In this document: in pieces, positions 12,509-12,757 of the stretch
How the letters are laid out: each line of letters starts with the position of its first letter
Numbering within the stretch: position 1 is the first letter of the stretch
The notes under the pieces: model-generated
Seen by the model: the letters and a program-made list of their open reading frames with translations, nothing else
Databases searched by the model: none
Told to the model about the DNA's origin: nothing
Assembly: GCF_021441885.1 (NCBI RefSeq)
Contig: NZ_CP090438.1
Span: forward strand, 1,803,730-1,835,729
DNA length: 32,000 bases
DNA from: Vibrio maritimus
Lineage (GTDB): Bacteria > Pseudomonadota > Gammaproteobacteria > Enterobacterales > Vibrionaceae
Direction of reading: 5' to 3'
Made by a program: the position numbers and the translations under genes

Positions 12509-12757
12509 TTAAATGATAGGCCTAAAACGAATTACATGATTATCTCGAATTGTAATCGTTTCACCTCTGCGATTCTCACTCAATTTTTCTTTTCTGGTTT
12601 TTGCCAAGAAATCACCAAGCTCTGAAATCTCGATAAATTCACGATCTAACAAAGCCCTGGCCATTTCATCAAAAGTTACTTCAAAAAGAACAGAAATGCT
12701 CTTTTGGTCTAAGTCGTACTTAGTTGAAATTCTTGAGATTAATTCAGTTTTGTTCAT
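12509..12757 (-). CDS. HU/IHF (DNABII)-like DNA-binding protein, divergent
   Basis: MNKTELISRIS...(helical)...ELGDFLAKTRKEKLSENRRGETITIRDNHVIRFRP follows the HU layout (MNKTQLI..., GFGTF, R-x-GRNP-x-TGE-x-I-x-I, V-x-F-x-P). It lacks the arm-tip proline. GAGGT lies 8 nt upstream of the ATG. Confidence 0.65.
   Translation of the reverse strand: MNKTELISRISTKYDLDQKSISVLFEVTFDEMARALLDREFIEISELGDFLAKTRKEKLSENRRGETITIRDNHVIRFRPII

Follow-up and report, generated by a model that had tools for sequence, protein, structure and literature searches.

IHF acts at the enhancer of the f1 origin. The CTXphi initiator requires host HU in order to nick, and VGJphi and Pf require it in order to replicate (PMC4439123, PMC4863604). 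The factor in these systems comes from the host and is a canonical protein that has the proline, and the initiators that depend on HU are of the RstA type. Ff-type origins, by contrast, need no accessory protein for nicking (PMC4439123). DNABII genes are also known in tailed phages, where the proteins (YonN of SPbeta, for example) are full length, have a canonical arm and are encoded by large double-stranded DNA phages.

The locus described here lies in a 32,000-nt stretch of Vibrio maritimus DNA, which was analysed as a whole and is referred to below as the window. It likewise brings together a DNABII gene and a filamentous-phage replicon, but the phage has a pII initiator and a nick site of the Ff type. 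What is new is the occurrence of a proline-less, truncated DNABII variant in an inovirus context. YonN, also a virus-borne member of Pfam family PF00216, is the best match to the window protein in the phage database, at 32% identity. No report of an inovirus-encoded DNABII protein was found in the literature, which does not prove that there is none, and no DNABII gene was present in any inovirus examined for comparison.

Prophage array, attachment sites and origin

The window holds a tandem array with a period of 9351 bp, comprising three units and the first 336 nt of a fourth, all 100% identical. Each unit carries pII, pV, coat and adsorption genes, Zot/pI, two unassigned open reading frames (ORFs), an insertion sequence, an attachment region and a DNABII ORF. 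The pII protein is about 41% identical to Ff/IKe gene II and 81% identical to the pII of a Vibrio mediterranei prophage. The features of the array, its attachment sites and its origin are as follows.

15-3389: 3' end of a host cadherin-like adhesin gene, left of the array
3598-3625, minus strand: canonical 28-bp dif, AGTGCGTATTA-TCTATC-TTATGTTAAAT, forming the left junction of the array, with a host XerD arm and a phage XerC arm
3612-12962, minus strand: phage unit 1, an inovirus genome of 9351 bp
12963-22313 and 22314-31664, minus strand: phage units 2 and 3, 100% identical to unit 1
31665-32000, minus strand: start of the fourth unit
6415-7590, minus strand: Zot/pI
10193-10480, minus strand: pV-type single-strand DNA-binding protein
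10490-11812, minus strand: pII-type rolling-circle replication initiator (Phage_CRI and G2P_X_C)
11940-12125, plus strand: divergent small protein of 61 aa (phrog_2503), kept in relatives and presumed to be a phage regulator
12160-12201, minus strand: (+) origin core, with the hairpin GTACACTATCTTTAATAGTGTAC, the M13 nick-site 12-mer TCTTTAATAGTG and then the inverted repeat GTGTAAATATTACAC
12208-12304, unstranded: large imperfect hairpin, its arms 33 nt long, enclosing a CCCCGC/GCGGGG hairpin and lying between the origin and the DNABII gene
12812-12839, plus strand: dif-like site 1 of attP, with XerC arm AATGCGCATTA, 6-nt centre TCGAAA and XerD arm TTATGTTACGG
12944-12976, minus strand: dif-like site 2 of attP, with XerC arm AGTGCGTATTA, 11-nt centre and XerD arm TTATGTTGAGG

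Site 2 is inverted with respect to site 1, and there is one such pair in each 9351-bp unit. The dif pattern has seven matches in the window (the pairs and the single junction dif), whilst none would be expected by chance. On the phage (+) strand, sites 1 and 2 are predicted to pair their XerC and XerD arms into a forked hairpin of -23.6 kcal/mol. The attP adjoining the DNABII gene is a genuine CTXphi-style inverted dif-like pair. The initial annotation had placed an attP next to the gene, and the inverted pair, the (+)-strand fold and the junction with the host dif all uphold this; its distance for site 1, 55-82 nt upstream of the ATG, is exact. By the same three features the prophage appears, from its sequence, to be a CTXphi-type integrative phage that exploits Xer recombination.

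The origin hairpin occupies 12179-12201 on the minus strand and has a 10-bp stem, with a second inverted repeat next to it, as in domain A of M13; the nick is predicted to fall between 12189 and 12188. The 12-mer occurs once per unit, and also once upstream of pII in 10 of 10 Vibrio relatives checked. It matches M13 exactly, although pII has diverged so far from Ff gene II. Successive f1-type nick sites lie at 12193, 21544 and 30895, and the DNABII gene, about 300 nt from the (+) origin, is inside the origin-to-origin unit. Because it lies between successive origins, and between attP and origin, the ORF belongs to packaged phage DNA, as had been supposed in calling it inovirus-encoded. A separate small Xer-integrating satellite was considered and is ruled out by this position and by the presence of one attP pair per unit. 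The large hairpin between the gene and the origin may be a packaging signal, a (-) origin or a terminator; its sequence is not conserved in relatives. An Rfam scan of window positions 1-13100 returned no RNA family.

Two further observations concern the rest of the array. Downstream of Zot, every unit has two minus-strand ORFs of 169 aa and 113 aa (5372-5881 and 5868-6209 in unit 1), without a match in Pfam, NCBIfam or PHROG. The first has an apparent N-terminal signal peptide, as judged by eye, and the two are possible further cargo or lysogenic-conversion genes. At the host end, a related phage array in V. mediterranei (CP033577) also adjoins a similar adhesin gene, together with an RstA/RstB-type element (loci L040 and L041). 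The two adhesin genes have about 65% nucleotide identity and are not necessarily orthologous.

A DNABII protein without the arm-tip proline and helix alpha3

The DNABII gene and its immediate surroundings comprise the following features.

12461-12508, minus strand: cut-off 3' end of the ancestral 98-codon gene, with 15 in-frame codons LRKQLNPKSNFIAQR and the ancestral stop at 12461-12463
12509-12757, minus strand: DNABII (HU/IHF-fold) ORF of unit 1, 82 aa, ending in a premature TAA at 12509-12511
12767-12770, minus strand: Shine-Dalgarno sequence GAGG, 9 nt before the ATG
21860-22108, minus strand: identical DNABII ORF of unit 2
31211-31459, minus strand: identical DNABII ORF of unit 3

The ORF matches PF00216 (Bac_DNA_binding) with an E-value of 5.9e-15 and 55.7 bits (cut-off 22.4), over residues 1-80 and profile positions 1-81 of 90, and HMMER also matches it to IHF-alpha and HU chains in the PDB. 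An AlphaFold2 model of the 82-aa product, built from a 32-sequence alignment, has a pLDDT of 95.4, with predicted helices at residues 3-14 and 18-37 and strands at 42-44, 48-55, 58-61, 67-70 and 73-80. By Foldseek the model is close to Mycobacterium tuberculosis HU (4dky), IHF-alpha (1ihf_A) and Anabaena HU (1p71), with TM scores of 0.87-0.90 and rmsd values of 1.4-1.5 Å. Compared with the homologue on plasmid p23023, codons 1-82 have a dN/dS of 0.13 by Nei-Gojobori counts in which dS is saturated, at about 1.4-1.6. The Pfam match, the fold and the dN/dS value rule out a spurious ORF, and 12509-12757 is a true DNABII gene.

It is not, on the other hand, a true orthologue of IHF or HU. Against the NCBIfam equivalogs for IHF alpha, IHF beta and HU-alpha it scores 37.3, 34.9, 34.1, 33.0 and 20.5 bits, with cut-offs of 111-162, and this rules out that assignment. 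E. coli IHF alpha/beta provides the best matches among solved structures and in NCBIfam, and the folds agree to an rmsd of 1.4 Å; yet the corresponding scores of 33-37 bits stand against equivalog cut-offs of 111-120, the intercalating proline is absent, arm position R61 is occupied by E and helix alpha3 is missing. In the HMMER alignment a one-residue deletion takes out the arm-tip proline (SEN-RRGE versus GRNPKTGE). Among 32 aligned DNABII proteins, 26 have proline in the column in question, and the gap is confined to the window protein and its two closest relatives. The window protein thus passes the DNABII tests of sequence and fold but fails those of arm proline, helix alpha3 and basic charge. 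On the first of these points the initial annotation has held up well: the DNABII layout, the missing arm proline and the good Shine-Dalgarno sequence that it described are all confirmed, and structure prediction returns the fold that it had anticipated.

Codon 83 is TAA in the window, CAG (Q) in p23023 and a codon for E in the other homologues. Beyond it the old reading frame is preserved: the window encodes LRKQLNPKSNFIAQR and a stop where p23023 encodes LRKALNPKSNFIAKR and a stop, with 13 of 15 residues identical, and by the same dS-saturated Nei-Gojobori comparison codons 84-98 have a dN/dS of 0.056. So low a value indicates that the tail was under purifying selection almost throughout the divergence, and hence that the stop is recent. 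It is the single disabling change in the gene, which has no frameshifts, and both the TAA and the insertion sequence are present in all copies of the array.

The consequences for the protein are considerable. In a model of the full-length homologue the canonical helix alpha3 spans residues 82-88, homologous to the tail that the stop cuts off, so that helix alpha3, the basic tail and four net positive charges are all removed. The 82-aa product has a net charge of 0 and a pI of 6.59; the restored 98-aa form would have a pI of 9.69, in line with the relatives (9.6-10.0) and within the range of 29 other DNABII proteins (7.99-10.83). From these losses we infer that the truncated product is weakened or inactive for DNA binding. 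It is nevertheless still confidently folded in the model (pLDDT 95), and might therefore be stable and active. It had been said beforehand that a fold other than DNABII, or a gene absent or pseudogenised, would speak against a functional architectural protein: the predicted fold is that of DNABII, whilst the recent nonsense codon answers in part to the description 'pseudogenised'.

The premature stop could also be a sequencing or assembly error, the real product being the full-length basic protein of 98 aa. A tail that is in frame and conserved would be expected on this reading, as would identical copies if the repeat had been polished as one consensus. Substitution errors are, however, uncommon in finished assemblies, and we regard such an error as very unlikely.

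Plasmid relatives and the phage cargo slot

The window protein belongs to a very small proline-less subfamily whose other known members all lie in the replication and partition regions of Vibrio plasmids. Among 1.84 billion protein representatives, an exhaustive HMMER search gave only one with E<1e-10 (P0003, 52% identity), and a word-indexed search of 5.8 billion proteins returned, besides the window protein, P0002 alone (71% identity, 98 aa). The latter is WP_012219822.1, annotated as 'HU family DNA-binding protein', from the conjugative plasmid p23023 of Vibrio sp. 23023 (NC_010112). Scanning 185,579 species genomes added one close match, in V. zhanjiangensis (53% identity). In IMG/VR and the JGI metagenomes nothing was closer than 34%, the matches being canonical HUs of 24-34% identity. 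Four short IMG/VR contigs with HU matches were rejected, since they carry tailed-phage-type or other non-inovirus ORFs (terminase, integrase, amidase). An exact-sequence look-up of the 82-aa protein found no contig on record.

Taking these relatives together, the window protein is 71-73% identical to P0002 and 50-53% identical to P0003 and to the protein of locus L020, and all have the same gap in the arm. The p23023 homologue and its relatives in V. zhanjiangensis and on a plasmid-like metagenomic contig share with it the MNK.ELI start, the KLSENRRG arm and the same deletion. The C-terminal LRK.LNPKS motif of the plasmid proteins is still encoded in the window, after the stop. All non-phage members of the subfamily are 96-98 aa long and lie in plasmid maintenance regions. 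The p23023 gene sits after a ParA-like gene; in locus L017 the gene lies between ParA and a Replicase gene (PF03090 and PriCT_1); and in V. zhanjiangensis it adjoins a Replicase of the same kind, followed by apparent conjugative-transfer genes (ORFs read by eye). Thus the plasmid homologues are basic and stand beside ParA and/or Replicase, whereas the window allele is net-neutral, stops at codon 83 and lies in a phage intergenic region. The most fitting classification is as a truncated member of the proline-less plasmid DNABII subfamily. Nucleotide homology between the window and p23023 covers 12448-12760 only, that is, the gene alone.

The surroundings of the gene in the phage are of a different character, and can be described as a single feature.

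12210-12809, unstranded: hypervariable cargo slot, from attP to the conserved origin block, without homology to relatives

Relatives of the phage, with pII proteins 61-81% identical, keep pII, an origin block of about 50 nt (12151-12209) and an attP (12809-12978) that is 70-82% identical to that of the window. They do not share the approximately 600 nt in between, and the equivalent stretch measures 138-663 nt. In the V. mediterranei prophage array, which occupies the same host site beside a cadherin-like adhesin gene, the slot is taken up by an unrelated ORF of 125 aa, apparently membrane-anchored to judge from a hydrophobic C-terminal stretch. In an IMG/VR contig (L006) it holds an unrelated 83-aa ORF, phrog_15613, and in another locus (L005) no obvious ORF. 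Nor is a DNABII gene present in the relatives from V. fluvialis and V. vulnificus. A scan with the DNABII HMM found none in 85 related inovirus loci (704 kb) or in five more, 90 in all, whereas the window gave three matches; tblastn with the gene found nothing in the 12 closest loci. A standard gene of this phage lineage is ruled out by the count of 0 of 90, which agrees with the earlier remark that architectural proteins were not known among the standard genes of inoviruses. With unrelated genes occupying it in relatives, the slot does not look reserved for a factor acting at attP or at the origin, and the DNABII gene is on the same grounds argued to be generic cargo. Here the inovirus intergenic region acts as a cargo slot that samples plasmid genes.

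Two smaller observations bear on the slot. One IMG/VR relative (L011, IMGVR_UViG_2916734906_000002), with nick motifs at 1140 and 7337, has two tandem copies whose slots are about 575 and 223 nt long, so that the slot can vary even between neighbouring copies. Furthermore, a 79-nt piece of the window slot (12301-12379) is 85% identical to positions 445-523 of locus L041, beside an RstA-type element (Rep_trans and CTX_RstB) in V. mediterranei. This match suggests that different dif-integrating phages exchange intergenic sequence in mosaic fashion.

In the account that we favour, a plasmid-type, proline-less DNABII gene would have been captured as a single gene into the intergenic cargo slot of an inovirus that has f1-type pII, pV and Zot and that would integrate at dif through a CTXphi-like folded attP. 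Every copy seen here bears the recent nonsense codon 83, with helix alpha3 and the basic tail lost. Should the array have arisen through repeated rounds of integration, the phage would have multiplied with the truncated allele to at least three identical copies, and neither its replication nor its integration would need the full-length protein; this argument is weaker if the array grew by unequal recombination instead. We hold with moderate confidence that the gene came from a plasmid, is accessory and dispensable, and has now been crippled.

A simpler history is that the gene is a pure hitch-hiker, brought by illegitimate recombination into an insertion-tolerant intergenic region, never of service to the phage and now a decaying pseudogene. 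Its single occurrence in the databases, the arbitrary cargo of the slot, the nonsense codon and the want of a clear promoter would all fit. Against it stand the good Shine-Dalgarno sequence, the intact start, and the presence of only one disabling change with no frameshifts. Including the tail, moreover, its dN/dS is 0.12, a sign that selection was purifying for most of the time since divergence, much of which the gene may have spent on plasmids. We judge this history unlikely.

Possible roles of the gene and the neighbouring insertion sequence

The proximity of the gene to attP invites the suggestion that it encodes a functional phage architectural protein acting on the folded attP or on XerCD, with a promoter overlapping attP so as to couple expression to the integration state. 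The gene starts 55 nt from dif-like site 1, and HU and IHF bind preferentially to distorted DNA, forks and junctions for instance (PMC5683647, PMC9820253). Of the weak promoter candidates nearby, the best (TTTACA-16-TAATTT, 12853-12826) overlaps the site 1 XerD arm. A standard sigma-70 scan of the upstream minus strand nevertheless found no promoter, and the matches in a relaxed scan (7-8 of 12) occur at roughly the rate expected by chance; the initial placing of attP within the promoter region may thus be right but has no support from these scans. Relatives with a 70-82% identical attP and without the gene still integrate at dif, as the tandem arrays of V. mediterranei testify. The allele is in addition truncated and net-neutral, and the home context of its subfamily is plasmid replication and partition rather than recombination sites. 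A functional attP protein is on balance distinctly unlikely, and a sharp-kinking, IHF-like role at attP is less likely than a role at an origin. Shaping of attP, control of Xer recombination and silencing, all proposed at the outset, find no support; relatives place unrelated genes or nothing in the slot.

Under the favoured account of a captured and now crippled plasmid gene, the intact protein would have been an accessory architectural factor of a replicon, binding bent or structured DNA and aiding initiator assembly or nicking at the origin. On its home plasmids it would presumably have served the replication/partition nucleoprotein complexes encoded alongside; in the phage, the analogous target would be the nearby (+) origin. 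This specific role as an origin helper is put forward tentatively, by analogy, because of the plasmid neighbours and the known HU dependence of Vibrio filamentous phages. As Ff-type origins need no accessory protein, however, a phage of the pII type may have no use for an HU helper. That the phage supplies its own non-kinking HU/IHF-like factor, which would replace, supplement or antagonise host HU/IHF in rolling-circle initiation at the origin or in XerC-mediated integration of the folded single-stranded attP, is decidedly doubtful. Were it true, this would be the first case in the Inoviridae of an architectural cofactor encoded by the virus, and the phage would have a lever over rival HU-dependent phages that share the dif site.

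The truncation might itself have been put to use, with the proline-less, neutral subunit forming mixed dimers with host HU or IHF subunits, which it would alter or poison, and so changing host expression or blocking rival HU-dependent phages at dif. The model shows the helices for dimerisation complete and with high confidence; in V. mediterranei the related phage has HU-dependent elements of the RstA type beside it in the dif region, and Ff-type initiators are independent of HU (PMC4439123). The proposal is entirely speculative, however, as an identity of 30-35% to canonical HU/IHF makes mixed dimers uncertain, and the conserved tail after the stop marks the truncated form as very young rather than as an adapted design. 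We consider it highly improbable.

Whatever its role, a phage-borne HU/IHF-like gene would offer a natural experiment on the HU dependence of Vibrio filamentous phages, and the proline-less arm a test of how DNABII proteins act without the kinking residue. As a single occurrence of a truncated allele, the gene is useful as a lead and for illustrating gene flow from plasmid to phage, and does not amount to a new mechanism.

On the far side of attP from the gene lies the insertion sequence.

12982-14581, plus strand: IS1202/ISNCY-family insertion sequence, with a 469-aa transposase at 13039-14448 and TGT...ACA ends

The same 1.6-kb element is present at 3631-5230 and 22333-23932, and so in every unit. 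Its transposase matches NCBIfam NF033594 with an E-value of 5e-153. The element is flanked by a 5-bp duplication, AAATC, at 12977-12981 and 14582-14586, and a gap of exactly 5 bp separates it from the XerC arm of site 2 in attP. TGT...ACA ends, a 5-bp duplication and a distance of 5 bp from the XerC arm are hallmarks of Xer-site-hunting elements of the ISAjo2 type (PMC10132070). Those elements target the pdif site of Acinetobacter, whereas the insertion sequence of the window sits at the attP of a Vibrio filamentous phage.

The insertion sequence also accounts for a set of megablast matches to records named 'Vibrio phage ..._PE', which were considered as related phages and rejected, the match being to an ISNCY/IS1202-family transposase in Vinavirales elements. 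The 'PE' elements concerned, from V. cyclitrophicus (PQ189293, PQ189294 and PQ189374, and PQ189338, L181 23-1053), are Vinavirales (PM2-like) and not inoviruses. The record that carries the transposase is 75% identical to the window over about 1 kb. The ends of the 'PE' records correspond to window positions 12965-13038, with XerC-arm-like sequence, a 5-bp spacer and the end of the insertion sequence, at 92-94% identity over 64-74 nt. On this resemblance the 'PE' elements may also lie at Xer sites targeted by the same insertion sequence family.
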